Under the pieces are notes generated by a model. That model saw nothing but the letters and a program-made list of their open reading frames with translations. It did not search any database and was not told the origin of the DNA. This document shows positions 31,902 through 53,703 of a stretch of 64,000 nucleotides of DNA, in pieces; within the stretch, counting starts at the first letter, position 1; each line of letters begins with the position of its first letter. Location of the stretch: NCBI GenBank assembly GCA_947631745.1, contig CANRMM010000001.1:1367-65366 (forward strand), written 5' to 3'. Source of the stretch: an uncultured Clostridia bacterium (GTDB taxonomy: Bacteria > Bacillota > Clostridia > TANB77 > CAG-508). A program made the translations under genes and the position numbers.

Positions 31902-31962
31902 TTTTCCTCCTATTGGCTGATATTTTATATTTCATCTATTTTCAAAATGTTATATCAGCATT

Positions 31963-32010
31963 GGTGCTGAGGTTGTTAGGCTCTGCCGTTACAACGTCAG
32001 TATGCAAATG
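31963..32010 (+). repeat. Stem-loop repeat element, copy D, in a 184-nt S10-L3 spacer. Orientation is opposite to copies A-C.
   Basis: gtgctgaggTTGTtaggctctgccgttACAAcgtcagtatgcaaatgc. Flanks match the reverse complement of copy A (794-840). Confidence 0.5.
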
Positions 32011-32085
32011 CCTTAGCATTTGTATTCCTTTTGCATAAGTTGACTGTAAAACTCGATGCTTTTTTTCAAAAGCCTCTCGTTAACA

Positions 32086-32418
32086 CTACAACTTAATCTC
32101 TATATCAACACCTGCTGGCAAATCGATTTTCATCAAACTATCAACAGTTTTTTGTGTTGGATAAAGAATATCAATAACTCTTTTATGTGTTCTCATTTCA
32201 AATTGTTCTCTTGAATCTTTATCTTTATGTGGAGAACGCAAAATTGTTATTATTTCCTTTTGTGTTGGTAATGGAATAGGACCTGAAACCTTTGCTCCTG
32301 TCTTTTTAGCAGTATCTACTATCTTTTCAGCAGACTGTTCTAAAACTACATGATCATAAGCCTTTAATCTTATTCTGATTTTTTCACTTGTTACCGTATT
32401 TTCCTTCTTTGTTGCCAT
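32086..32418 (-). CDS. rpsJ: 30S ribosomal protein S10.
   Basis: 110 aa, [10 protein letters not shown]..., S10 similarity. Confidence 0.9.
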
Positions 32419-32687
32419 TAAAAATTCCCTCCTTAAATATATTTTATTTTAGGTCGGAAGCTATAAACGCATCCTGGTGTTTCTATATTTACCAATATTA
32501 AAACCCAAATTCGCATGAAAAACTTGGGATAAGTCTGCATTTATAATAACCATTTATTCATTAAATAAATGGCTTAACTTACCGCCCTGGTCTTAGCCAC
32601 GACATACTCTGTAAGAGTTCCCTCCATCAAAGCTTAACACTTTGTGTAGCCACATCTTACTTCATCGCTAAATAACATGCTCTCATA

Positions 32688-32715
32688 TTATATAACAATA
32701 AATCAGTAAAGTCAA
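32688..32715 (-). promoter_or_regulatory. Candidate sigma-A promoter of the S10 operon (TTGACT-16nt-TATAAT) with a roughly 270-nt leader.
   Basis: Minus-strand ttgactttactgatttattgttatataat. The long structured leader is consistent with the L4-autoregulated S10 leader (inference). Confidence 0.45.
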
Positions 32716-32880
32716 CTGTTTTGTTCATTTTTATTACACTTTTATGACATTTTTGTAACAATTCTTCTTACAAAGTTAATTTTAAAAATAACATAAAAAA
32801 GAATACCTTATTTGAATATTTAAATCAATTTTCATTTAAAGTATTCTTTTTATTTTTTATTTGTATATTGTACCTATCAG

Positions 32881-33000
32881 ATTTTATTTTCCCTTTTTTT
32901 ATATTTCTTAGGCTTCTAAGTACAACCTATTTAAGTCTGTCCCTCAAGTGACAAAAGTGTCACTTTAAAGAACGTCCCCAAAGTGACAAAGTGACAAATC
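32881..33000 (+). repeat. REP-like repeat, copy 1 (about 120 bp), containing GTGACAaaagTGTCAC.
   Basis: Near-identical to 43240-43385. Shares the GTCCC(C)AAGTGACA...GTGACAAAGTGACAA core with 50703-50766 (reverse) and 51706-51783. Confidence 0.6.
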
Positions 33001-33696
33001 AATAAGTTGTTGTTCTAAGAAACTCATATTGTCTTTATTTTCTTGCAACGTTTCTATAGAAATAGCATTATCTAAATAGAACTCTCCTACTGCCGTTCTT
33101 TGAAGTTCTTTCATAAAACCAACTGTCTCTAACTTCTGTGCAATGTCTTCACATAAACTACGAATATATGTACCTTTTGAACATTTTACTTGAAATTCGA
33201 TTTCTTTTTCCTTTAAATTAATCGCTATCAATTTAATCTCATAAATGTTAATATTTCTAGGTTCTACCGTTACTTTTTCACCTTTTCTTGCATATTCATA
33301 AAGTTTTTTTCCATTTACTTTAATTGCAGAATACATTGGTGGAATCTGTTTCTGTTCTCCTAAAAAAGATTTTAAAACTTTTTTTACATTTTCTTCTGTC
33401 AATTTTTCTTTTATATATTTCTCATTTAATTCTTGTTCTTCTATAATCTTACCTTCCACATCTGCCGTATCTGTTTTTACACCTAACTTAAGTATTACTT
33501 TATATTCCTTATCATGATTTGTTAAATAACTGGAAAGTTTTGTTCCTTTTCCTATTAAAAGAGGAAGGACTCCTGTTGCATTTGGATCCAATGTTCCAGT
33601 ATGTCCCACCTTCTCTTTATATATTTTTTTTACAATAGCTACAATATCATGAGAAGTATATCCTTTTGGTTTATTCACCACTAAGATTCCATCCAT
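32965..33696 (-). CDS. truB: tRNA pseudouridine(55) synthase TruB, C-terminally truncated.
   Basis: 243 aa with the catalytic TruB core. The last 11 codons and the stop lie inside REP-like copy 1. About 50-60 aa short of typical TruB. Confidence 0.8.
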   Translation of the reverse strand: MDGILVVNKPKGYTSHDIVAIVKKIYKEKVGHTGTLDPNATGVLPLLIGKGTKLSSYLTNHDKEYKVILKLGVKTDTADVEGKIIEEQELNEKYIKEKLTEENVKKVLKSFLGEQKQIPPMYSAIKVNGKKLYEYARKGEKVTVEPRNINIYEIKLIAINLKEKEIEFQVKCSKGTYIRSLCEDIAQKLETVGFMKELQRTAVGEFYLDNAISIETLQENKDNMSFLEQQLIDLSLCHFGDVL

Positions 33697-38077: not shown

Positions 38078-38375
38078 TAATAACTTTCTTTATAGCATTA
38101 GAAAAATTTATATCTTTTACTCCTACCACAACCTTGTTTTCTTTACCGATTGCTTTACTCAATTCTTCCATTTTTAAAATTTCTATCACAGGTATCTCCC
38201 TTTCAGTACACACTTTCTTAAAATTATTTTTTGTTCTTTCTGCTGCATCTTCTGCCAGCAATAATAACTTTATCTTCTTTTTTTCTATATCTGTCATACA
38301 GGCTTCTGTTCCAAAAACAATCTTTCCTGCTTTTGTAGCTAATCCTAATAACCCACATATTTTATTTTTTATCAA
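38055..38375 (-). CDS. ylxQ: L7Ae-family RNA-binding protein YlxQ.
   Basis: 106 aa, [17 protein letters not shown] start. Overlaps the infB start. Confidence 0.7.
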
Positions 38376-38626
38376 TTAACACACCTCTCAACTCCTCATA
38401 GATTTCTTCCTCTACTTTCATTTCGAAGCATTTTTCAATTCGTTTTGATTTAATAGCCTTTTCTAAGCATTGAATATCATTACACAAATATGCACCTCTT
38501 CCAGACAATTTACCGGGTTTTATCTATACAAATATTCCCATTTTTATCTTTTACAATTCGAATTAGCTCATTTTTATTTTTCTTTGCATTACATCCTAAA
38601 CAAGTTCTTTGTGGTAAACTTTTCAA
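38362..38626 (-). pseudogene. ylxR: ylxR (DUF448, YlxR-family) with an apparent +1 frameshift.
   Basis: TTG start after AGGAG gives LKSLPQRTCLGCNAKKNKNELIRIVKDKNGNICIDKT, then a stop. The +1 frame continues GKLSGRGAYLCNDIQCLEKAIKSKRIEK... to a stop at 38362. The break is at aaaaCCCGG. Confidence 0.5.
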
Positions 38627-40536: not shown

Positions 40537-41304
40537 TTAATACTCATTATCATGTAGCATCGTTCCATTTGCATAGAAATTATCTAAATCTTCTACATCT
40601 ATTGTATATAAATCTGTTGGCTCACTATTTAAGTTTATATCGATACTTTCTATCTCTTTCCATCCTTCTTCTGTCTTTACTACATCATCATTTTCTAAAT
40701 ATTCATATCCTTCATACCTTGATAATGACTTCCAGCCTTCTTTTGTATATATTGGATGATACATATTTTGTACTAATGTACTTCCGTCTTTAAATTTAAT
40801 TGTCACAATATCTGTTGCATCTTCATGTATATATGTTCCTGTTACTTTTCTTAGTTCATTTCTTTCTGTTTCTTCGTTGTATGCTACTACTGTATCTCCT
40901 ATTTTTAAATCTTCTATTGCTTTTATATGTCCTTCTACGTCTATTAATACTTGTGAACCTGCTACAATACATTTATTGTGTACTAATATACTATCTAATC
41001 CTACAAAGTAGTCGTGATTATCCTCTACTATCAAATTATATACTTTTATTGTTTCATTGTTTTCTATTCTTTCTATCTTAGTTATCTTCTGTTCTACATT
41101 ATTACTATTAATTAATATATCTCCTACTTTCAAATTACCTGCTTCTGTCCATCCTTTACTCATTACATAAAATGGATGATTTGGTGTTACTTCTACATCT
41201 GCATTTTCTGTATATATTTTTAATAGATTTCCGCTATAATTATGAACTAAAGTTTTTAATACTTCTTTTACTTCTATTTCACGTGTGTCATTAACTCCTC
41301 CTCA
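40537..41304 (-). pseudogene. Degenerate tandem Hint (Hedgehog/intein, BIL-like) domain cassette. TGA sits at the Cys1 position of the first Hint domain.
   Basis: Open frame after TGA (41302-41304): GGVNDTREIEV...TPNHPFYV...VYNLIVEDNHDYFVGLDSILVHN-K-CIVAGSQVLIDV...LYTIDVEDLDNFYANGTMLHDNEY-stop. The only in-frame ATG (41163) lacks an RBS. Confidence 0.6.
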
Positions 41305-41329
41305 AATAGTTCAAACCATGGCGAAATCT

Positions 41330-41428
41330 AAAAATATCACCTGATACAACTTCTCTTTCATAATATAGCTGTCAATCTATAGCAAAATTTAAAAATATCA
41401 CCTGATACAACTTCTCTTTCATAATATA
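41330..41428 (-). repeat. Two 38-bp perfect direct repeats (41330-41367 and 41391-41428) straddling the stop codon of ORF 41358..43232.
   Basis: aaaaatatcacctgatacaacttctctttcataatata occurs twice. Copy 1 encodes YYEREVVSGDIF in the ORF frame; copy 2 is in a shifted frame. Confidence 0.6.
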
Positions 41429-43232
41429 ATTCTTCGTTGTCTGCTGACCAAGTTAATCCTTCCCAATCGCATTCATAATAATAACCTCTACCAAAATTAA
41501 CCGACGTTCTTTCTTGTGTAGTCACTTTAACACTTCTAGCATTCAAAGGAACACTAATCTTCTTACTTTCTGGTTCAGAGCTCCAATTAAATGCTCCAGG
41601 TGTAAAAGGAATTGATATTGTTTCACTCGATAATTCACTTCCATCACCATCATACCAAGTCACTAAATATTCAAATGGAGCATAAACAACACTATCCCAG
41701 TCATTATTGTCTTCGGCCCAAAGTCCCCTCGCCAAACCATTCAAAACCTCGCTATACTCACCTTTAATTGGAAACCCTCCATCCCAGGTTCTACGCAATT
41801 CATATTTTTCTCTATATTCTGGACTACACTGTTTCGACCATTTTTCAGCCAAAGGATCGTAAACACTTTTGTAATACAAATCCTCACAAAATGCTTCCAT
41901 AACGAGCGACATCAGCTCGTCACCGGCGTCAGCCCCCTCCTCGATTACATCCATAATATCATAGTATAGTTTGAAATCATGGTAATAATATGCATTATTC
42001 ATACATTTTTGAATGTAATCCTTGGTAAATAATTCGGAATCACCACCATAAGTTACAGTCGTAGCATCTTTAAGGCACGAAACCACATAAGCACTAAAAT
42101 CACCATTGAAATGTTCATTAATAAAATCCTGTTCATGCGAAGAGACGTAATCGTCGACCAAACCTTCCCAACCATCACAGTACTCCCAGTCCAAGTTTAT
42201 TAAATAGTCATCCAAAATAACTTCTCTTTCTATTATAATATATGGCGTTACATCTGCTTCTACCTCCGGTAATTTTTCTCCTTTTGGTATTACTGGTTTT
42301 GGAGTTCCTGTTAACTCTCCTATTCTATTTATTATTATTTCCTTTGCTTCTACATCTCCTTGTGTTACTGTGTATGTATATTCTATTGTTGCTGTTCCGT
42401 TTGGCTCTAATGAATCTATAATAAATTCTCCGTTCTTGCAACTTACCCCTTCACTCATACTTGATACTTTTATTTCTTCATCTCCTGGAAAATATGTTCC
42501 ACTTCCTGCTGTTAGCGTATCTGGTATATGAATATTCTTCATTGTTACTTTGCCTGTATTTTTTACCGTTATTGTCCATTCTATTTCTTCATTCGCTATA
42601 TAATATTCTCCATTTTTTGGAGTTGATGTTACCTCTTTTGTTATCTCAAAATTTGAATTGTCATTTTCTACTATGTTCTTTATTCCATCTACTAATATTC
42701 CTAATTCTCTATTTTCTCTTGTATCTTTTCCATAATACATTACTCTATATGTTTTGCCTTCATCTGTTTCTGCTAACTTTATTGTTTCTTCTGTTTTTGC
42801 TACCTTTGTTATACTTCCTGTCCCTGGTGCTACTTCTTCTAATTTATATACATCTGTACTTCCTTCTCCATTTCCTAATGCTAGCCTTGTTCCTGCTAAT
42901 GTTTCAACATTTATTTTATATACTCCATCTGTTCCTATATCTTCAACTATTCCTCTATCTTGCAAATAATCTATTAAACTTGTTTCCTCTTTTCCAACCC
43001 TTCCTGCCCAGTAATCCGAATATGCCATCTGTATCCTTTCCCACACTGTTGCATGAGTATGCTCTACTTTCCCTCTATCTGCACTTGAAATTAATCCATT
43101 CTCTCCAAATACTGCATTAATACTTATTACTGCCAAAATAATTAATATTACTATTGTTACCACTAATGCTATTAGTGTTATTCCTTTATGCTGTTTCAGC
43201 ACTCCTTTTATTTTCCCTGTTCTTTCTTTCAT
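41358..43232 (-). CDS. Secreted protein with prepilin-like N-terminus, conserved paralogous domain, DUF11-like repeat and a compositionally foreign C-terminal module.
   Basis: 624 aa. KG|ITLIALVVTIVILIILAVISINAVFG. About 160 aa shared with ORF 46127..47371 (about 90% nucleotide identity at the 5' end). TITVKNTGKVTMKNIHIPDTL is a DUF11-like motif. Confidence 0.6.
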   Translation of the reverse strand: MKERTGKIKGVLKQHKGITLIALVVTIVILIILAVISINAVFGENGLISSADRGKVEHTHATVWERIQMAYSDYWAGRVGKEETSLIDYLQDRGIVEDIGTDGVYKINVETLAGTRLALGNGEGSTDVYKLEEVAPGTGSITKVAKTEETIKLAETDEGKTYRVMYYGKDTRENRELGILVDGIKNIVENDNSNFEITKEVTSTPKNGEYYIANEEIEWTITVKNTGKVTMKNIHIPDTLTAGSGTYFPGDEEIKVSSMSEGVSCKNGEFIIDSLEPNGTATIEYTYTVTQGDVEAKEIIINRIGELTGTPKPVIPKGEKLPEVEADVTPYIIIEREVILDDYLINLDWEYCDGWEGLVDDYVSSHEQDFINEHFNGDFSAYVVSCLKDATTVTYGGDSELFTKDYIQKCMNNAYYYHDFKLYYDIMDVIEEGADAGDELMSLVMEAFCEDLYYKSVYDPLAEKWSKQCSPEYREKYELRRTWDGGFPIKGEYSEVLNGLARGLWAEDNNDWDSVVYAPFEYLVTWYDGDGSELSSETISIPFTPGAFNWSSEPESKKISVPLNARSVKVTTQERTSVNFGRGYYYECDWEGLTWSADNEELYYEREVVSGDIFKFCYRLTAIL

Positions 43233-43239
43233 TTATTTT

Positions 43240-43385
43240 CCCCTTTTCTTTTATATTCTTAGTTTTCTAAGTATAACCTATTTAAGTCTACTTATTTAAT
43301 TTTATTCCTTTAAGTCTGTCCCTCAGGTGACAAAAGTGTCACAAATAGGAACGTCCCCCAAGTGACAAAGTAACAAAAATGACAG
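43240..43385 (+). repeat. REP-like repeat, copy 2 (about 145 bp, with an internal tttaagtct duplication).
   Basis: See 32881..33000. Lies between the start of ORF 41358..43232 and mutS2. Confidence 0.6.
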
Positions 43386-43461: not shown

Positions 43462-43486
43462 TGTGTGTGTGTGTGTGTGTGTGTGT
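43462..43486. repeat. (TG)12 dinucleotide microsatellite.
   Basis: tgtgtgtgtgtgtgtgtgtgtgtgt, read directly. Intergenic, between divergent genes. Confidence 0.85.
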
Positions 43487-43734
43487 ACTCTCGCAATGGT
43501 TTCAGGTTTTGCCATTTTTTATTATTCCTCTTTCTTTCGTTTATACTTATTTTATACCAATAATATTAACTTTTGTCAACATTGAAATTTATAATATTTT
43601 TTACCCCTGTATACAAGATAATCCTTCTTTTCTTTACAACACTAAAAAGAATACCTTATTAAAATTATGACATTTTCAACAATATTACTATAAAATATGT
43701 TATAATAATATCATTATTTATTTTGGAGGATGTT

Positions 43735-46077
43735 ATGAACACAAAATATCTTGATACTTTAGAATATCATAAAATCATAAATCAAGTCGAAAATTTAGCC
43801 AAAACATATTGTGGTAAAGAAAAAGTTAAAAATTTATCTCCTTGCTTCTCATCAGAAACTGTTCAATATTTACTAAGTCAAACTACTGAAGCAATCAGTC
43901 TAATTTATAGAAAGTCAAATATTCCACTAGCAGAAATTCCTAATATTTCATTATGGATAAAACAATTAGAAAGCTACTCTATTTTGTCTCCTAAAGCTTT
44001 ATTAGAAATTGCTACTATTTTTAAAATTTCAAGAGAAATAAAACAATATTTTTTATCAGATGAGAATTTTGATGTTTCATCTTTCCCTATCTTATATGAC
44101 GATTTTTCTCAATTATATATAAATAAAAATATGGAAGAAAAAATATTTCATATCATAATAGATGAAAATACAATAGCTGATAATGCTTCCACTAAACTTG
44201 CTTCTTTAAGAAAGCAAAGTAAAAAATTAGAACAAGATATTAGAGATAAATTATCTTCTTTAATTCATTCATCTACTTATTCAAAATATATGATGGAAAC
44301 AATTATAACAATTCGTAACAACCGTTATGTAATTCCTGTAAAAGAAGAATATAAAAATAATGTAAAAGGTTTCATCCATGATGTGTCAAGTAGTGGCTCT
44401 ACAGTATTTATTGAACCAATTAATGTTTTCGAACTAAATAATGAAATTTCAAACATAAAAGTTGAAGAAAATAAAGAAATTGAAAGGATTTTACAAGAAC
44501 TATCAAGCGAGCTATATGAATATACTGAAAATTTAATTTCTAACATTAATATCATTGGAGAACTGGATTGTATTTTCGCAAAAGCAAATTATTCCATAAG
44601 CATAGATGGTACAATGCCTAAGATAGATAATATATCTACAAAAAATTCTCAATCTAAAGTAATTCATCTTTTACAAGCCAGACATCCATTAATTGCTAAA
44701 GATACTGTTGTACCAATCGATATATCTGTTGGAGAAAATTATACTTCTTTAGTCATTACTGGGCCTAATACTGGAGGTAAAACAGTAACTCTAAAAACCG
44801 TAGGTCTTTTACTTTTAATGGCTTATACTGGTATATATATACCTTGTAAAGAAAATAGTACCATTCATGTTTTTGATCATATCTTTGCAGACATCGGTGA
44901 TGAACAAAGTATTCAAGAATCATTAAGTACATTTTCTTCTCACATGTCAAATATTATTGAAATTACTGAAGAAGCAAATAATAATAGCTTAATTTTATTA
45001 GATGAATTAGGTTCTGGAACAGATCCTATCGAAGGTGCGAACTTAGCTATCAGTATCTTAGAATATTTTCATCAGTTAGAAACTATTACTATTTGCACAA
45101 CCCACTATCCAGAACTAAAAAATTATTGCTTACTAACAGATGGTTTTGAAAATGCAAGTAGTGAATTTGATATTGAAAAACTACAACCAACCTATAAACT
45201 ATTAATAGGAATTCCCGGTAAAAGTAATGCTTTTGCAATTAGCCAAAAATTAGGTTTGAATAAAGACATATTGCAACGTGCTAATTCTTTAATGAAAAAT
45301 GAAGATATTAGTATTGAAGAACTAATGAAAAGTATATATGATGATAAAATTGCTATTGAACGAGAAAAAGAAAAAATAGAAAAAAATTCGCATCAGCTTG
45401 AACATCTACGAAAATCTTTAGAGCAAGAAAATGAAAATGTAAAAAAACGTGAACAGGAATTAATTGAAAAAGCTAAATTAGAAGCCAGAGATATCGTTCT
45501 ATCTGCAAAAGAAGAAGTTAACGATATTATACATGAAATTAATCAATTAGAAAAAGATTATCAAAATTATGCAGACTATGTAGAAGAAAATGGATTAAAA
45601 AAAGCAAATCAGTTACGTAATCAGCTAAATAGCAAATTACAAGATATTGATACCTTAGGAAATACAGATACTAGATTAAACCTAGAAGTTTTAAAAAATC
45701 TTAACACTAAACAACAAATGAAACAAAACAAATTACCAAAAAATTCAACTCAAGGCAAGGACAAAAATAATATTAAAAGTAATAGTCATTCTAGCATCAA
45801 TTTTATAAAAAACAATAATTACAAATCTCAACATATTTCCTCTGAAATCAATGTAATTGGTATGAATGTAGATGAAGCCACTTTTCTAATTGATAAATAT
45901 TTAGATGATTGCATTATTAGTAAGCTTTCTCCTATTCGTATTGTTCATGGGAAAGGAACTGGAAAGTTAAGACAAGGTATTCATACTTATTTAAAGAAAA
46001 ATCCTCATGTTAAATCATTTCGCCTTGGCACTTTTGGTGAAGGAGAAATGGGTGTTACTGTAGTTGAATTAAAATAG
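43735..46077 (+). CDS. mutS2: Endonuclease MutS2 (MutS domain plus C-terminal Smr domain).
   Basis: Walker A GPNTGGKT. C-terminal Smr (VHGKGTGKLRQG). ATG at 43735 lies 4 nt after GGAGGA. Confidence 0.9.
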   Translation: MNTKYLDTLEYHKIINQVENLAKTYCGKEKVKNLSPCFSSETVQYLLSQTTEAISLIYRKSNIPLAEIPNISLWIKQLESYSILSPKALLEIATIFKISREIKQYFLSDENFDVSSFPILYDDFSQLYINKNMEEKIFHIIIDENTIADNASTKLASLRKQSKKLEQDIRDKLSSLIHSSTYSKYMMETIITIRNNRYVIPVKEEYKNNVKGFIHDVSSSGSTVFIEPINVFELNNEISNIKVEENKEIERILQELSSELYEYTENLISNINIIGELDCIFAKANYSISIDGTMPKIDNISTKNSQSKVIHLLQARHPLIAKDTVVPIDISVGENYTSLVITGPNTGGKTVTLKTVGLLLLMAYTGIYIPCKENSTIHVFDHIFADIGDEQSIQESLSTFSSHMSNIIEITEEANNNSLILLDELGSGTDPIEGANLAISILEYFHQLETITICTTHYPELKNYCLLTDGFENASSEFDIEKLQPTYKLLIGIPGKSNAFAISQKLGLNKDILQRANSLMKNEDISIEELMKSIYDDKIAIEREKEKIEKNSHQLEHLRKSLEQENENVKKREQELIEKAKLEARDIVLSAKEEVNDIIHEINQLEKDYQNYADYVEENGLKKANQLRNQLNSKLQDIDTLGNTDTRLNLEVLKNLNTKQQMKQNKLPKNSTQGKDKNNIKSNSHSSINFIKNNNYKSQHISSEINVIGMNVDEATFLIDKYLDDCIISKLSPIRIVHGKGTGKLRQGIHTYLKKNPHVKSFRLGTFGEGEMGVTVVELK

Positions 46078-46126: not shown

Positions 46127-47371
46127 TTATTCAGTCCATATTAAAGGATCTTCCTTTGTTCCCTCTCCTTGTACTCTATCAATAGCTGTTGGATTAACTA
46201 TAAAAATTGGTCTTAACTTATTCGTAGCCACATTGCTTCTATAAAAATTTTTATAATAAAAATTTGAATATATACTAAAGCCAGCAATCGTCTCCGGATT
46301 ATAGGTTCTACTTAGAAAATATTCAAGGCCATAATATTCACCTGCACCAGACGTCTTTTGTGCTCTAGAAGACACCCAATAATTTGATTTACTAGTTGTA
46401 TCGAAAATATCAACTCCCAATGATTTCATATTTTGCATCTGTAAAAAATCAATATTAGAATTGCTATCTACATCTTTAATCATTGTATCACCAACTGTCC
46501 ACTTTCCTGAAGTTGCTTTTTCTGCTAAATTTACTAAATCTTTTGATTCAGAATATGGATCATTTGGCACACTTCCTACACATCTTGCACTAGTTACATA
46601 CATATTATTACTTTCATTTACATATTTTTTTGCCTCATTATTCAATGTTTCTATAGCACTATTATATGATTCTACTGCTAATTGCATTTGTTCTGAAGTT
46701 CCACCCTGAGTTAAATCACAATCATTTCCAATCCCAATGTTTTCTCCTACTACATCTGTTGCTATCATTTGTATTCCATAATTAGTTTTATTTGTTTTAT
46801 TATATTCTTCGTCATACATTACTACGCACTCTATTGTTGTACCATTATATGGCAATTGCACATATTTTCCTACTTTGAATTCACTTGCAGTTTGAGGCAA
46901 ATCTTTTTTCTTATCTCCTTCTAGCACTCCCAAGTTTCTAGGTCCACTTTCTCCATAATAATTTACACTATATGTCTTATCTCCATTTGCTTCTACGGTT
47001 TCTTCTAATTTATATACATCATTTTGGTCATCTGTTCCATTTCCTAATGCTAACTTTGCTCCTGCTAATGCTACTGTGTTTATTTTATATCCTCCATTAC
47101 TGGTCTGTTCTGTTCCTATTATTTCTTTTTCTTGTAAATATGATATTAAATCTTTTTTCTCATTTGCTACTTTCCCTGCCCAGTAATCTGAGTATGCCAT
47201 CTCCATTCTTTCCCATACTGTTGCATGTGTATATTCTACTTCTCCTTTTTCTGTACTTGAAATTAACCCATTTTCTCCAAACACCGCATTAATACTTATT
47301 ACTGCCAAAATTATTAATATCACTATTGTTACAACTAATGCTACTAAGGTTATTCCTTTTTCTCTTTTCAT
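46127..47371 (-). CDS. Secreted protein with prepilin-like N-terminus, paralog of 41358..43232 with an unrelated C-terminal region.
   Basis: 414 aa. MKREKG|ITLVALVVTIVILIILAVISINAVFGENGLISS... RBS AGGAGGA immediately downstream of ppiB. Confidence 0.6.
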   Translation of the reverse strand: MKREKGITLVALVVTIVILIILAVISINAVFGENGLISSTEKGEVEYTHATVWERMEMAYSDYWAGKVANEKKDLISYLQEKEIIGTEQTSNGGYKINTVALAGAKLALGNGTDDQNDVYKLEETVEANGDKTYSVNYYGESGPRNLGVLEGDKKKDLPQTASEFKVGKYVQLPYNGTTIECVVMYDEEYNKTNKTNYGIQMIATDVVGENIGIGNDCDLTQGGTSEQMQLAVESYNSAIETLNNEAKKYVNESNNMYVTSARCVGSVPNDPYSESKDLVNLAEKATSGKWTVGDTMIKDVDSNSNIDFLQMQNMKSLGVDIFDTTSKSNYWVSSRAQKTSGAGEYYGLEYFLSRTYNPETIAGFSIYSNFYYKNFYRSNVATNKLRPIFIVNPTAIDRVQGEGTKEDPLIWTE

Positions 47372-49325: not shown

Positions 49326-50690
49326 TTATCTAATTCCGAGCGTTCTCATCGCCTCATTAATATTTCTAACGCCTATTATATCTAATTTATAATCATCTTT
49401 CAATAGTTTTTTATTACTTTCTGGTATAATACATTTTTTAAACCCTAATTTTTCCGCTTCTTTAATTCTTTTTTCAATCATATTAACAGCTCTAACCTCT
49501 CCTGTTAAGCCAACTTCACCAATCGCTACTACTTCTTTTGGAATACTAACATTTTTATAACTAGAGCCACAAGCCAAGATAACTCCTAAATCAACCGCAG
49601 GTTCCACAATACGAATACCACTAACAACATTTAAATAAACGTCTTGTCCTCCTAGAGCTAACCCTGCCTTTTTTTCCAAAACTGCAATTAAAACTGCCAA
49701 ACGGTTATAGTCAAAACCATTTGCTGTCCTTTTAGGAATACCAAATACACTTGTTGCAGTTAAAGCTTGTAATTCTATTAAAAGTGGTCTTGTTCCTTCC
49801 ATACTTGCTACAACAACTGACCCTGCGGGATTATCCTCCCTCTCTGAAATCAAAATAGAAGATGGATTCGTAATTTCTACCATACCTTCATTTTTCATTT
49901 CAAACATACCTAATTCATTAGTTGAACCAAATCTATTCTTAACACTTCTTAACATTCTATAAGAAAAATAGCGTTCTCCTTCTATATACAAAACAGTATC
50001 AACCATGTGCTCTAAAACTCTTGGTCCAGCAATATTTCCATCTTTTGTAACATGACCAATAATAATTGTCGTAATATTATTATCCTTGCAAATACGCATA
50101 ATTCTTGCTGTAATCTCTCTTACCTGACTAACTGTACCAGCAGCAGAAGTTATCTCTTCTGAATACATTGTTTGAATAGAATCAATAATAACTAACTTAG
50201 GCTGAACTGATAAAATTGCCTCCTGAATAGCATCTATATCTGTTTCTCCTAAAAACATAATATCATCATTATTAATTCCTAAACGGTCAGCTCTAATTTT
50301 AACTTGCTCTGCCGACTCCTCTCCAGAAACATACAGAACTTTTCCTTCTCCTTGAATTTTATCACAAAGTTGAAGAATTAAAGTAGACTTACCAATACCA
50401 GGTTCTCCACCAACTAATACAAGAGAACCTTTCACTAGTCCACCACCTAAGACTCTATCCAATTCTCCAATACCAGTACTAATGCGAGAAGTATAAATTC
50501 CCTCTACATCTTTCAGCTTTCTTGGCAACACATTTTTCTGCTTACCACTAGGATTATTTGTAGATACCGTATTATTAACCTTCTCTTCATAAAAACTATT
50601 CCATTCATTACATGCAGGACACTTTCCCAGCCATTTAGCCGACTCATATCCACAATTTCCACACACAAACACCGTCTTTACCTTCGCCAT
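49326..50690 (-). CDS. radA: DNA repair protein RadA/Sms.
   Basis: N-terminal Zn ribbon CGNCGYESAKWLGKCPAC, Walker A GEPGIGKST, Lon-like C-terminus. Confidence 0.9.
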   Translation of the reverse strand: MAKVKTVFVCGNCGYESAKWLGKCPACNEWNSFYEEKVNNTVSTNNPSGKQKNVLPRKLKDVEGIYTSRISTGIGELDRVLGGGLVKGSLVLVGGEPGIGKSTLILQLCDKIQGEGKVLYVSGEESAEQVKIRADRLGINNDDIMFLGETDIDAIQEAILSVQPKLVIIDSIQTMYSEEITSAAGTVSQVREITARIMRICKDNNITTIIIGHVTKDGNIAGPRVLEHMVDTVLYIEGERYFSYRMLRSVKNRFGSTNELGMFEMKNEGMVEITNPSSILISEREDNPAGSVVVASMEGTRPLLIELQALTATSVFGIPKRTANGFDYNRLAVLIAVLEKKAGLALGGQDVYLNVVSGIRIVEPAVDLGVILACGSSYKNVSIPKEVVAIGEVGLTGEVRAVNMIEKRIKEAEKLGFKKCIIPESNKKLLKDDYKLDIIGVRNINEAMRTLGIR

Positions 50691-50702
50691 TTTTCCTCCT
50701 TC

Positions 50703-51783
50703 TTGTCACTTTGTCACTTTGGGGACGTTCCTTTTTGTGACACTTTTGTCACTTGTGGGACACTCCTTCATTCTTTAGATATCGCTCTATATATCATCCT
50801 TTTATTAATACCTAAAATTCTAGCTAGTTGTTCTCTATAAATGCCATCTATTTTACTAGCCTCTTTAATAATTTTATCCCTATACTCTGGCTTGTACCTT
50901 TGTATACTTAGTAAATTATCTATATGTAATTTTCTTCTAATTTCTACTATTGCTTCTTCATCATTTAGTCTAGTTATATTTTCAAATTCTTTTTCATCAT
51001 ATTGTTCTTCAATATTACTCATATTATAGTTTTTCCATAGTTCGATTGCTCTTTGCCTATCCAAACTAAAAATAGATAAAATAAATTCAATATCTGTGAT
51101 TTTTTTATTTCCTACATATTCCTGATAACTGCTCCATTGATATGAACTCATTTCACCTATCCCATCTTTTTGAGGATTTCGATGAATATATCTCTGTACA
51201 TTTAACAAGTAGCTCTCACTTTCAACACTTTTGCTATTAAATCTATTAAAAAAAAGATGACCAATCCTATCATATTTTTTATTAAAATATACTGCATAAG
51301 ACGTCGCTAAGCTTTGCATAATTTTAGAAAGCATATTTTCATTATCTTTTATGAGCATATGAACATGATTACCCATTAAAACATAAGCATATAATTGATA
51401 TTTATATTTATCTTTTGTATCTATAATTTTTTCTATAAACTTTTCTCTATCGTCATTATCAAAAAATATTTCTTGACTATTAATTCCTCTGATAATAACA
51501 TGATACACATTTGTAAAAGATTTTTTACTTTTTCTTGAACTACGAGGCATTATACCACCTTTCCTTTCTTTAAGGTTGAATGCCCCCGTATTCAACTTTT
51601 ACATAAATAAAAATATAGCATAAATTTCACAATCATGCTATATTTTTCACAAAATTTATATATATATTTCAAATATATTTCAAATTTTATAATTAATATT
51701 ATTAAGAGTGTCCCCAAAGTGACAGTTTTGTCACTAAAAAGAACGTCCCCAAAGTGACAAAGTGACAACTAAAGTGACAAAAG
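50703..51783 (-). mobile_element. IS200/RAYT-like unit: Y1 HUH transposase gene flanked by inverted copies of the REP-like repeat.
   Basis: Repeat copy 3 (50703-50766, reverse) and copy 4 (51706-51783, forward) bracket ORF 50768..51550. Confidence 0.6.
50768..51550 (-). CDS. Y1 HUH transposase, IS200/IS605-TnpA / REP-associated tyrosine transposase-like, with a C-terminal HTH extension.
   Basis: NVYHVIIRG..., HUH motif GNHVHMLI, catalytic-Tyr motif RYIHRNP. Start taken at MPRSSRK (ATG 51550) after GGAAAGGTGG. Confidence 0.7.
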   Translation of the reverse strand: MPRSSRKSKKSFTNVYHVIIRGINSQEIFFDNDDREKFIEKIIDTKDKYKYQLYAYVLMGNHVHMLIKDNENMLSKIMQSLATSYAVYFNKKYDRIGHLFFNRFNSKSVESESYLLNVQRYIHRNPQKDGIGEMSSYQWSSYQEYVGNKKITDIEFILSIFSLDRQRAIELWKNYNMSNIEEQYDEKEFENITRLNDEEAIVEIRRKLHIDNLLSIQRYKPEYRDKIIKEASKIDGIYREQLARILGINKRMIYRAISKE

Positions 51784-53703
51784 AAACATTGCGTGAGACC
51801 ATGCAAGACCATTTACCCATGATGGAGTCATAGTATTGTTGTCAATTTGTTCTGATAGAAATCCATGCTCATTAGCACTATTTATAACAAAATCTATGCA
51901 TTCCTTAGCTTTCTGTCTTTCTCTATTAGCTTGATAATACATTGCCATCCATAAAGTTGCTATTGGCCAAGGGTCTTTTCCTCCACGATAGTTATCTCCT
52001 TCAAATCTTAAATATCCCCCTGTATAAGTACGCAATGTCATATTAATTCTTTCTACCGTATTTAGTACTTTCTTTTCTTTTGCTCCAAATAATCTAAATG
52101 GTACAACTGTTGCAAGCATACTAATATCTGTTCTTTGATCCTTGCAATTTCTATACAAGCATTTTAATTTTTCATCATACATATTTTTGGATATATATTT
52201 TTTTATTTCTTCTTGATATTTCTCCATTTTAGTTTTTAATTTACTAATTGCTTCTAATTTTAATCTATTATCTTGATATTCTCCTTCTACTTTTTCATAA
52301 ATATTGAGCATCGCTTGAAATGCTGCATAAATACTAGCTAAAGAGTATAAATGAACTCCTTCTTCCATTTCCCACAAGTCGTAACTATCTGGTAGCTTAT
52401 TTCTTTCTTCTGTATGATATGTCATCTCAATTTCATTTTTTACCACATCACTTTTATCATGAATTCCCATAATGTTTTCAATATAAATACATAAGAATTT
52501 TGATGCATTTTCACACATTTTTAATGTATCTTTTAAGAATTTTACGTCATTTATTTCTTGATAATGCTCATATATTCCATAAATAACACTAGCGGTTTCA
52601 TCAATCTGATATCCCCAGCAAGGTGCTAACTTTCCATCTGTATAAAATCTTTGTTCCCACATTCCATTTTTATTTTGAGTATTCTTACAAAATATCTTAT
52701 AGAACTTTTCCGTTTCCTTATACATTTTTATTTTATCTAATCCTTTTGTAACAAACACTGCATCACGTGGCCAGCAATAGGCATACCTGCCACTTTGTTC
52801 TCTATCTTCATCTACTTCAACAGCAGCTGAGATTCCACCAGTATTGCTATTAATTAAAAGTGGAAATAGTAAAATACTTCTTTTATAAATTTTATTATAT
52901 TTTCTATTGTAATCGGTTGTTTCTGCTTTCAATTCTATGTTAATATGGTCTTTCACATATTTTTTCCAGTATTTTTCTACACTTAATTGTTCTTTAGCAA
53001 CATCCATTTTTCGAATATTGCTTACTTGTGCCATGATTTTTTCTCCGTTATTAACTTCTGAAGTAGATATGTATAAAAAGATGTCTAATTCTTTCTTTTC
53101 CCCTGGTCTAAGAAGACCTACATCATAGCTTACACTAGAGTCAGCACTCATTCCTATGTAATCTTTATCTTGGATTACACCACTACCAATACTAGTCTCT
53201 GAATCATTTAACTGATGACTCAAAACATTTCCCTTTGAGAAAATACACATTGTAGATTGATGACTATATTGTTCTAGTACTCCCTCACTCATCTTTGATC
53301 CTACCATATTGTTATAATCAGACAACAATTTAGAATGTACCAAAAAATTAACATTTAAATCAATAGTATTATGATTTTCAAATATATACCTTTTTATCAA
53401 TACATCCTCTTTTAAAGAAACAAAATCTATTTGCTGCACTTTTAATTCAAAATATGTATTTTCAATCTCTGTATGTAATACATTTGTATCCTCTGTATAA
53501 TATTGCTGATATCGATTATTTTGATCCTCATGTAAATAGATCATACAAGAATCATTAATTTTTACTCCTGTATAAAAATAGTCTATAAACTGTCTATAAT
53601 CTGGTGTATCATACATAAGTCTTAGCAATTCTCCATTTCTAGTATAACTAGCCGTAATATTTTTACCACCAATAATGGCATCGTTCATATATTTCTTCTT
53701 CAT
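51769..53703 (-). CDS. Glycoside hydrolase, GH15 (glucoamylase)-like (alpha/alpha)6-barrel family (tentative).
   Basis: 644 aa with a WPRDA-type motif. The last 6 codons and the stop lie within REP-like copy 4. Confidence 0.45.
   Translation of the reverse strand: MKKKYMNDAIIGGKNITASYTRNGELLRLMYDTPDYRQFIDYFYTGVKINDSCMIYLHEDQNNRYQQYYTEDTNVLHTEIENTYFELKVQQIDFVSLKEDVLIKRYIFENHNTIDLNVNFLVHSKLLSDYNNMVGSKMSEGVLEQYSHQSTMCIFSKGNVLSHQLNDSETSIGSGVIQDKDYIGMSADSSVSYDVGLLRPGEKKELDIFLYISTSEVNNGEKIMAQVSNIRKMDVAKEQLSVEKYWKKYVKDHINIELKAETTDYNRKYNKIYKRSILLFPLLINSNTGGISAAVEVDEDREQSGRYAYCWPRDAVFVTKGLDKIKMYKETEKFYKIFCKNTQNKNGMWEQRFYTDGKLAPCWGYQIDETASVIYGIYEHYQEINDVKFLKDTLKMCENASKFLCIYIENIMGIHDKSDVVKNEIEMTYHTEERNKLPDSYDLWEMEEGVHLYSLASIYAAFQAMLNIYEKVEGEYQDNRLKLEAISKLKTKMEKYQEEIKKYISKNMYDEKLKCLYRNCKDQRTDISMLATVVPFRLFGAKEKKVLNTVERINMTLRTYTGGYLRFEGDNYRGGKDPWPIATLWMAMYYQANRERQKAKECIDFVINSANEHGFLSEQIDNNTMTPSWVNGLAWSHAMFLLSL

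Follow-up and report, generated by a model that had tools for sequence, protein, structure and literature searches.

In an uncultured Clostridia bacterium, the truB gene is cut short at a short dispersed repeat and is followed by the S10 ribosomal-protein operon, an arrangement that is probably the trace left when this lineage lost or relocated at least ~7.4 kb between two ancestrally neighbouring operons, as gene order in related genomes suggests. The gene is truncated, the block that lies between the two operons in a relative is missing, the truB-side breakpoint falls on the boundary of a repeat, and a family of such repeats is present together with a transposase. We infer that the repeat caused the event, which is a real but fairly ordinary rearrangement. 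The analysis covered a window of 64,000 nt, meaning the whole stretch of DNA under study, in which the genes around the truB-rpsJ junction all lie on the minus strand. The features at and near the junction are the following.

32086-32418, minus strand: rpsJ (S10), first gene of the S10 operon
32419-32686, minus strand: rpsJ 5' leader of ~260 nt, conserved with relatives
32687-32715, minus strand: S10-operon promoter, TTGACT-17-TATAAT, matching at 11 of 12 positions and found at the homologous position in relatives
32783-32865, minus strand: AT-rich inverted repeat, a ~15-bp stem followed by UUUUUU, terminator-like
32882-32929, minus strand: remnant of a DUF11/CLIPPER leader and Shine-Dalgarno sequence, homologous to 43233-43289
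32927-33003 (core 32930-32998), minus strand: copy 1 of a REP/TIR-family repeat, at the truB-side breakpoint
32965-33696, minus strand: truncated truB, 243 aa, identified by Pfam, NCBIfam and homologue alignment
41358-43232, minus strand: DUF11/CLIPPER-type secreted-protein gene (Pfam), 51% identical to the gene after truB and 6S RNA in the relative Lapin-016 bin4 (L002, GCA_947628735.1)
43305-43378 (core 43309-43377), minus strand: repeat copy 2, oriented as copy 1
43723-46077, plus strand: mutS2, divergent

The predicted TruB retains a complete TruB_N domain (Pfam, E 1.1e-57) with the invariant LDPNATG motif, and scores 261.7 bits with TIGR00431 against an NCBIfam cut-off of 151.45. Its C-terminus is another matter. 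TruB_C_2 is covered at positions 1-43 of 66 only, and PF09157, carried by the closest homologues, has no Pfam match in the window protein, which bears out the expectation of the sequence-only reading that alignment would reveal loss of the PUA domain. Relatives have TruB proteins of 291-309 aa, compared with 243 aa here; the closest homologues (72-74% identity) measure 302-308 aa, and the best 120 are nearly all 286-329 aa long and align to just 96% of the query. That reading also held that truB is truncated at the repeat, and the alignment (A1) agrees, as homology ceases at about residue 232 (...EQQLI D), ~65 further residues present in relatives are gone, and the tail LSLCHFGDVL-stop has no counterpart in them. 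Repeat copy 1 encodes the final 10-11 codons and the stop of truB, and its RNA folds as a 14-bp hairpin overlapping that stop codon. At the DNA level, similarity to the relative contigs L002, L004 and L046 ceases at 33011-33028, or ~32999 by eye, and the truB-side breakpoint coincides with the first base of copy 1 (32998) within ~2 nt. A tblastn search of the 64-kb window recovered no remnant of the TruB C-terminus (best E 0.34).

No acceleration, frameshift or internal stop was seen in the window truB. In a three-taxon comparison of seven operon genes, the catalytic part of TruB has a branch of 0.127 in the window, 0.123 in L002 and 0.136 in L004, and these values show no relaxed selection on the truncated gene. 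Either the truncation is recent or the shortened TruB may still be under selection, which raises the question of whether a predicted TruB that has lost its PUA-like domain still works.

Read in the direction of transcription, the window carries a 24-codon (CA)12 ORF, copy 2, the DUF11/CLIPPER gene, a PT-HINT ORF and the rimP operon, which comprises rimP, nusA, a frameshifted ylxR, an L7Ae-family gene, infB, rbfA, nrnA and truB. A 546-nt spacer then leads to rpsJ and the remaining S10/spc/alpha ribosomal-protein cluster. In L002 and L004, a full-length truB is followed directly by 6S RNA (RF00013, 104-106 bits; gathering score 46.4) and then by prmC, whiA, a hemN-like gene, transglycosylase (-), murC (-), spoVG and a small ORF; L002 alone has a CLIPPER gene between 6S RNA and prmC, absent from L004. 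The 6S RNA also lies directly downstream of truB in L046 (positions 9000-9184 in L002, 8319-8507 in L004 and ~9712-9895 in L046). On the other side, murC(-)-spoVG and then small or variable ORFs precede rpsJ in L031-L038, L042/L043 and L045, the last with an RpsJ 97% identical to that of the window, while spo0A-sortase and more ORFs precede it in L039-L041. The adjacency of truB and rpsJ occurs in none of the ~15 relative contexts, in agreement with the suggestion that it is derived. The same suggestion had assumed that truB normally continues into ribF-rpsO-pnp and that tuf/fusA normally precedes rpsJ, and here it failed: the clade has 6S RNA and prmC-whiA-hemN-like-transglycosylase-murC-spoVG after truB, and murC-spoVG with small or variable ORFs, never tuf/fusA, before rpsJ. 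This is a warning for annotation, as the model-organism gene orders truB-ribF-rpsO-pnp and tuf-rpsJ do not apply in this clade.

L046 holds both operons on one contig, 7.4 kb apart and on one strand, in the order rimP...truB (296 aa), 6S RNA, prmC, whiA, hemN-like, transglycosylase, murC, spoVG, orf64, rpsJ, rplC. Window positions 40486-33028 align with L046 1522-9388, and 32745-30970 with L046 16830-18591, such that 282 nt in the window stand where L046 has 7,441 nt. Because the operons are already neighbours in L046, the event would be a loss or relocation of the intervening block. None of prmC, whiA, hemN-like, murC, spoVG or 6S RNA is present in the 64-kb window, and the possibility that the block lies elsewhere in the window was discarded after tblastn with nine block proteins gave no match there. 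We likewise rejected a simple repeat insertion leaving the truB 3' remnant downstream, since the window contains neither the TruB C-terminus nor 6S RNA. Since murC is normally essential, relocation of the block is likelier than loss, and the missing essential genes, murC among them, are presumably now elsewhere in the genome. A PrmC search yielded a candidate (P0251) on 3-8 kb contigs from sister samples (L047-L051) with the order CLIPPER-like gene, prmC, whiA, hemN-like, transglycosylase, murC, spoVG, orf140. The divergence of these contigs from L002 (77-85%) is about equal to that of the window (84%); they are a plausible candidate for the relocated block, but nothing ties them to this genome.

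The 282-nt filler consists of repeat copy 1, the CLIPPER-gene leader remnant and the AT-rich terminator-like hairpin. The remnant at 32882-32929 is followed by no gene; its homologue, 43233-43289, is the leader and Shine-Dalgarno stretch that separates copy 2 from the start codon of the intact DUF11 gene, whose whole leader after copy 2 spans 43233-43304. Nothing in relatives corresponds to the AT-rich inverted repeat. From 32722-32745 downward, the rpsJ leader shares 78-85% identity with the regions upstream of rpsJ in relatives, and at 32504-32528 it has an attenuator-like hairpin with a T-run after it. At 32579-32673, it matches the S10-Clostridia model (RF03136) at 18.8 bits, with E 0.47 and a gathering score of 35.1; the relative L031 has no match at the gathering score either, and Rfam otherwise returned only this sub-threshold S10-leader match in the window. 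No repeat lies at the right-hand breakpoint, near 32746. An operon fusion had been proposed for the junction, and a truB-rpsJ transcriptional fusion is not indicated, because two hairpins (that of the repeat and the AT-rich 15-bp stem with U6) and an intact S10 promoter intervene; the truB and S10 operons presumably remain separate transcription units.

Several further observations concern the neighbourhood. The rpsJ-rplC spacer (31902-32085) measures 184 nt, compared with ~60-85 nt in L031, L039 and L042, and holds a hairpin at 32002-32025; L045 and L046 also have long spacers, but these are unrelated in sequence and fail to align with that of the window, for which reason a conserved element was rejected. 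The ylxR gene (38365-38626, minus strand) is split by a frameshift, its N-terminal 37 codons lying in one frame and its C-terminal 52 in another, and gene callers likewise call only the C-terminal part in L002. Between mutS2 and copy 2, a perfect (CA)12.5 tract at 43462-43486 lies in the 24-codon ORF (MAKPETIARVHTHTHTHTQVILWK), which has its own TTGACA-17-TATAAA promoter and a terminator and is possibly a slipped-strand phase-variable element. A 29/61-nt tandem repeat (41311-41428) follows the DUF11/CLIPPER gene and is itself followed by the PT-HINT ORF, in which no toxin domain was found. In nucleotide sequence, the N-termini of the DUF11/CLIPPER gene and of a second ORF at 46127-47371 share 82% identity, and 40537-43232 together with 46127-47371 looks like a variable surface-protein or polymorphic-toxin-like locus.

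The repeat at the junction belongs to a family of 60-70 nt with four copies in the window, 83-92% identical to one another, where the chance expectation for a 30-mer of the repeat is 0.00. The two remaining copies bracket a transposase gene, on which the sequence-only reading is silent.

50697-50770 (core 50697-50765), plus strand: repeat copy 3, inverted, between the transposase stop and the radA ribosome-binding site
50768-51550, minus strand: Y1 HUH transposase of the RAYT/TIRYT kind, 260 aa from its ATG
51698-51774 (core 51701-51769), minus strand: repeat copy 4, which gives a GH15-like ORF its end

Copies 1 and 2 are direct and 10.3 kb apart, as had been noted from the sequence, and share ~57 nt beyond the repeat in addition to the repeat itself, ~120 nt in all. 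Since they are only 88% identical in the repeat and 77-88% in the leader, they are not a recent duplicate. Copy 4 supplies the last codons (LSL) and the stop of the GH15-like ORF (51769-53703), which likewise confirms an earlier claim. The orthologue in UBA11489 ends inside the orthologous repeat copy as well (overlap at 51769-51790 in the window and ~6380-6460 in L007), and the overlap is thus conserved between species. In a separate case, at L019 7300-7540, an ORF reads into or through a repeat and gains a hydrophobic tail (FVTLGTFLLVTILSL...).

A scan of GTDB species genomes found the repeat core in six uncultured Clostridia MAGs, namely UBA11489, Lapin-016 bin4, SRR15633991 bin.32, ABMPRH_45_2_1, MGYG-HGUT-04260 and UMGS2019. 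Copy number reaches 4 in the 64 kb of the window and 16 in the fetched pieces of UBA11489, many copies of the family occupy intergenic sites, and some in relatives form inverted doublets. In SRR15633991 bin.32, one doublet lies between infB and rbfA (L024 3341-3463) and another in the ribosomal-protein cluster near map (L027 1047-1263); the family therefore seems to tolerate or prefer sites in highly expressed operons. The consensus of 30 copies is TTTGTCACTTTGGGGACGTTCCTTTTTGTGACAnTTTTGTCACTTTnGGGACACACCTTAA, and the ~60-nt unit comprises two direct TGTCAC-TTT-GGGGAC boxes and one 6-bp hairpin. The GTGACA/TGTCAC stem (6-7 bp) is paired in 86% of cells and shows two compensatory pairs in a core that is otherwise invariant, and its further pair types exceed all but 5 of 500 shuffles. 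An alternative long-loop stem fits the data equally well but has no covariation.

The family is oriented with respect to genes. Of 31 copies, 14 have their TGTCAC end at a distance of 0-10 nt from the Shine-Dalgarno sequence and start codon of a gene that runs away from this end, a position taken by the other repeat end in none of the 31. The copy before radA, GTGACA|AAAGGAGGAAAAATG (window 50690-50770), is one example, and the other loci are L007, L009, L011, L013, L016, L018, L021, L023, L024, L026, L027 and L030. This bias suggests either a target preference for the complement of the ribosome-binding site or a role in 5' UTRs.

The transposase matches Y1_Tnp in Pfam (E 3.4e-15) and carries the motifs HVH (GNHVHML) and YIHRNP (RYIHRNP) in its translation. 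Its best NCBIfam model is the REP-associated tyrosine transposase NF047646, with 57.5 bits against a cut-off of 80, and residues 233-259 give weak matches to HTH_28, HTH_17 and HTH_23 (E 0.1-0.17). The family counts 694 library representatives at E<=1e-30; among the best 150 of these, most are ~250-270 aa long and matched over almost the whole query. A phmmer search against PDB chains gave no match. The gene is single-copy, 18 kb from the truB-rpsJ junction, and the copies that bracket it, 3 and 4, are inverted, 87% complementary and 940 nt apart. UBA11489 (L007) has the transposase, 53% identical in amino acids to that of the window, and both flanking copies at the same site between radA and the GH15-like gene. 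By this arrangement, the Y1 HUH transposase is likely the enzyme of the repeat family.

The ancestral order would have been rimP-nusA-ylxR-L7Ae-infB-rbfA-nrnA-truB, 6S RNA, sometimes the DUF11/CLIPPER gene, then prmC, whiA, hemN-like, transglycosylase (-), murC (-), spoVG, small ORFs, the S10 promoter and leader, and rpsJ. The ancestor of this particular genome may have carried truB-6S-(repeat-leader-CLIPPER)-prmC...spoVG-S10, from which deletion or excision, in one step or two and with the TGTCAC end of the repeat as an endpoint, would have removed, on the truB side, the truB 3' end and 6S RNA and, on the other side, everything from CLIPPER through spoVG. The 282 nt would thereby stand in for the DNA between about truB codon 233 and a point shortly before the S10 promoter. 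Two routes could lead there, either homologous recombination between two direct repeat-plus-leader modules or cleavage by the transposase at the repeat end followed by illegitimate joining. The junction retains only one repeat copy, which offers no proof of recombination between two.

The source is a short-read metagenome assembly with a coverage of ~6.6x (ENA ERZ27249187), the junction carries a repeat and the missing block holds essential genes, all of which would suit a chimeric contig joined at the repeat. Such an artefact is nonetheless very improbable. Differences of 8-17% separate the repeat copies, and the longest stretch that copy 1 has exactly in common with the others, ~28 nt by eye in the four-copy alignment, would not suffice to create a chimera when assembling at k=55+. 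Unique sequence lies on either side of copy 1, and the join would need a truB-internal repeat that is absent from every relative. Moreover, the exact 243-aa TruB occurs with the same neighbours on five contigs of 50-200 kb that have at least two lengths, 68,025 and 69,250 nt, and an independent ENA contig, NODE_166_length_68025, matches the window junction at 100% identity. The JGI metagenomes contained no match to a junction 30-mer, and a TruB search there returned only relatives at 45-60% identity. The sequence-only reading had instead pictured two distant conserved operons, united when the direct copies on either side of the nusA operon, 1 and 2, recombined or mediated a translocation. The stretch shared by these copies fits that proposal, as does the shift of the DUF11/CLIPPER gene, which lies downstream of truB in L002 and upstream of rimP here. 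It is improbable all the same, being largely refuted by L046, where the operons are neighbours on one strand; the mutS2-rimP side is otherwise collinear with L002, and neither ribF/rpsO/pnp nor tuf/fusA adjoins either operon in any relative examined.

A more serious contender, although still an unlikely one, gives the repeat the role of a bystander: the block would have been removed and truB truncated by an ordinary illegitimate event, a deletion or a translocation, while the repeat either already stood beside the CLIPPER leader or was inserted later into the new intergenic space. The off-repeat position of the right-hand breakpoint speaks for this and, like the divergence of copies 1 and 2, against a repeat scar. 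The repeat-leader-CLIPPER module is present both at copy 2 and in the relative L019, so the repeat may be part of an ancestral downstream cassette, and the many intergenic sites of the family point the same way. Set against this, the truB-side breakpoint meets the first base of the repeat almost exactly, and the three relatives that keep the region (L002, L004 and L046) have no repeat between truB and prmC. We therefore retain a loss or relocation of the intervening block, with one end at the repeat, as the probable course of events. A bolder extension is tentative and rather doubtful: the repeats would be an active, site-selective element of a RAYT-Group-1/TIRYT transposase, inserting beside the Shine-Dalgarno complement, with the repeat boundary as a recombination hot spot. 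If so, this boundary would reshape operon borders and gene 3' ends, and a housekeeping tRNA-modification enzyme that displays no sign of decay would have lost a domain to the repeat.

Here the join left by the loss of several genes between two core operons is marked by a repeat of the REP/TIR type, which also gives a conserved enzyme a new C-terminus. The locus raises the question of whether the repeat family targets ribosome-binding-site regions. Compared with the TruB family (TIGR00431), the window TruB likewise has the full catalytic domain and LDPNATG, and differs in the absence of the C-terminal PUA-like domain found in all close homologues. Judged from its sequence, the repeat at the truB-side end is a bona fide REP/TIR-type element; the repeat-transposase system belongs to a known kind, and the kind of event is also known.

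REP/REPIN-RAYT systems were reportedly the subject of Nunvar 2010 and Ton-Hoang 2012. They were also described by Bertels & Rainey 2011 (PMC3116915). Like them, the present system combines a short dispersed hairpin repeat with a single-copy Y1 HUH gene between inverted copies, its inheritance is syntenic and apparently vertical, and REPIN-like inverted doublets occur in relatives. It differs in that the repeat lacks the GTAG/CGTC tag and has a ~60-nt unit with two direct boxes, the transposase scores below the NCBIfam RAYT cut-off and has a C-terminal extension, and copy number looks moderate.

The likeness to TIRtron/TIRYT elements is closer in some respects. These elements carry the motif GGGGWSAS (Di Nocera et al. 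2013, PMC3733652; also given in PMC6006769) and correspond to TnpA-Y1 subclass 2.1 of Quentin et al. 2018 (PMC6006769), who also give Y---NP as the class-2 (TnpA-REP) signature, and to RAYT Group 1 of Bertels et al. 2017, noted in Clostridia (PMC5581495). Some TIRs form moderately abundant dispersed families with dimers, and ORFs with REP-encoded residues have been listed (Di Nocera 2013, PMC3733652). Here, too, a ~260-aa class-2 Y1 protein, a candidate for the subclass, has Y---NP and a putative HTH-like C-terminal tail (weak matches, E ~0.1), and the flanking inverted repeats carry GGGGWSAS, matched by GGGGACAC in copy 4 and in the UBA11489 copies. At the same position, copy 3 has TGGGACAC and the 30-copy consensus reads nGGGACAC. 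Subclass 2.1 genes had no REP-like repeats nearby in Quentin et al. (PMC6006769), whereas the flanking repeats here are a dispersed family in at least six MAGs. The findings extend clear REPtron/TIRtron systems, described in the literature mostly from Proteobacteria, to uncultured gut Clostridia.

REP sequences are known as join-points of rearrangements from older work in Salmonella and E. coli. As in those cases, the repeat here lies at the join-point, where it supplies C-terminal codons and a stop. In contrast to them, a housekeeping gene, truB, loses a whole domain, and the host belongs not to the Proteobacteria but to an uncultured low-GC Clostridia lineage.
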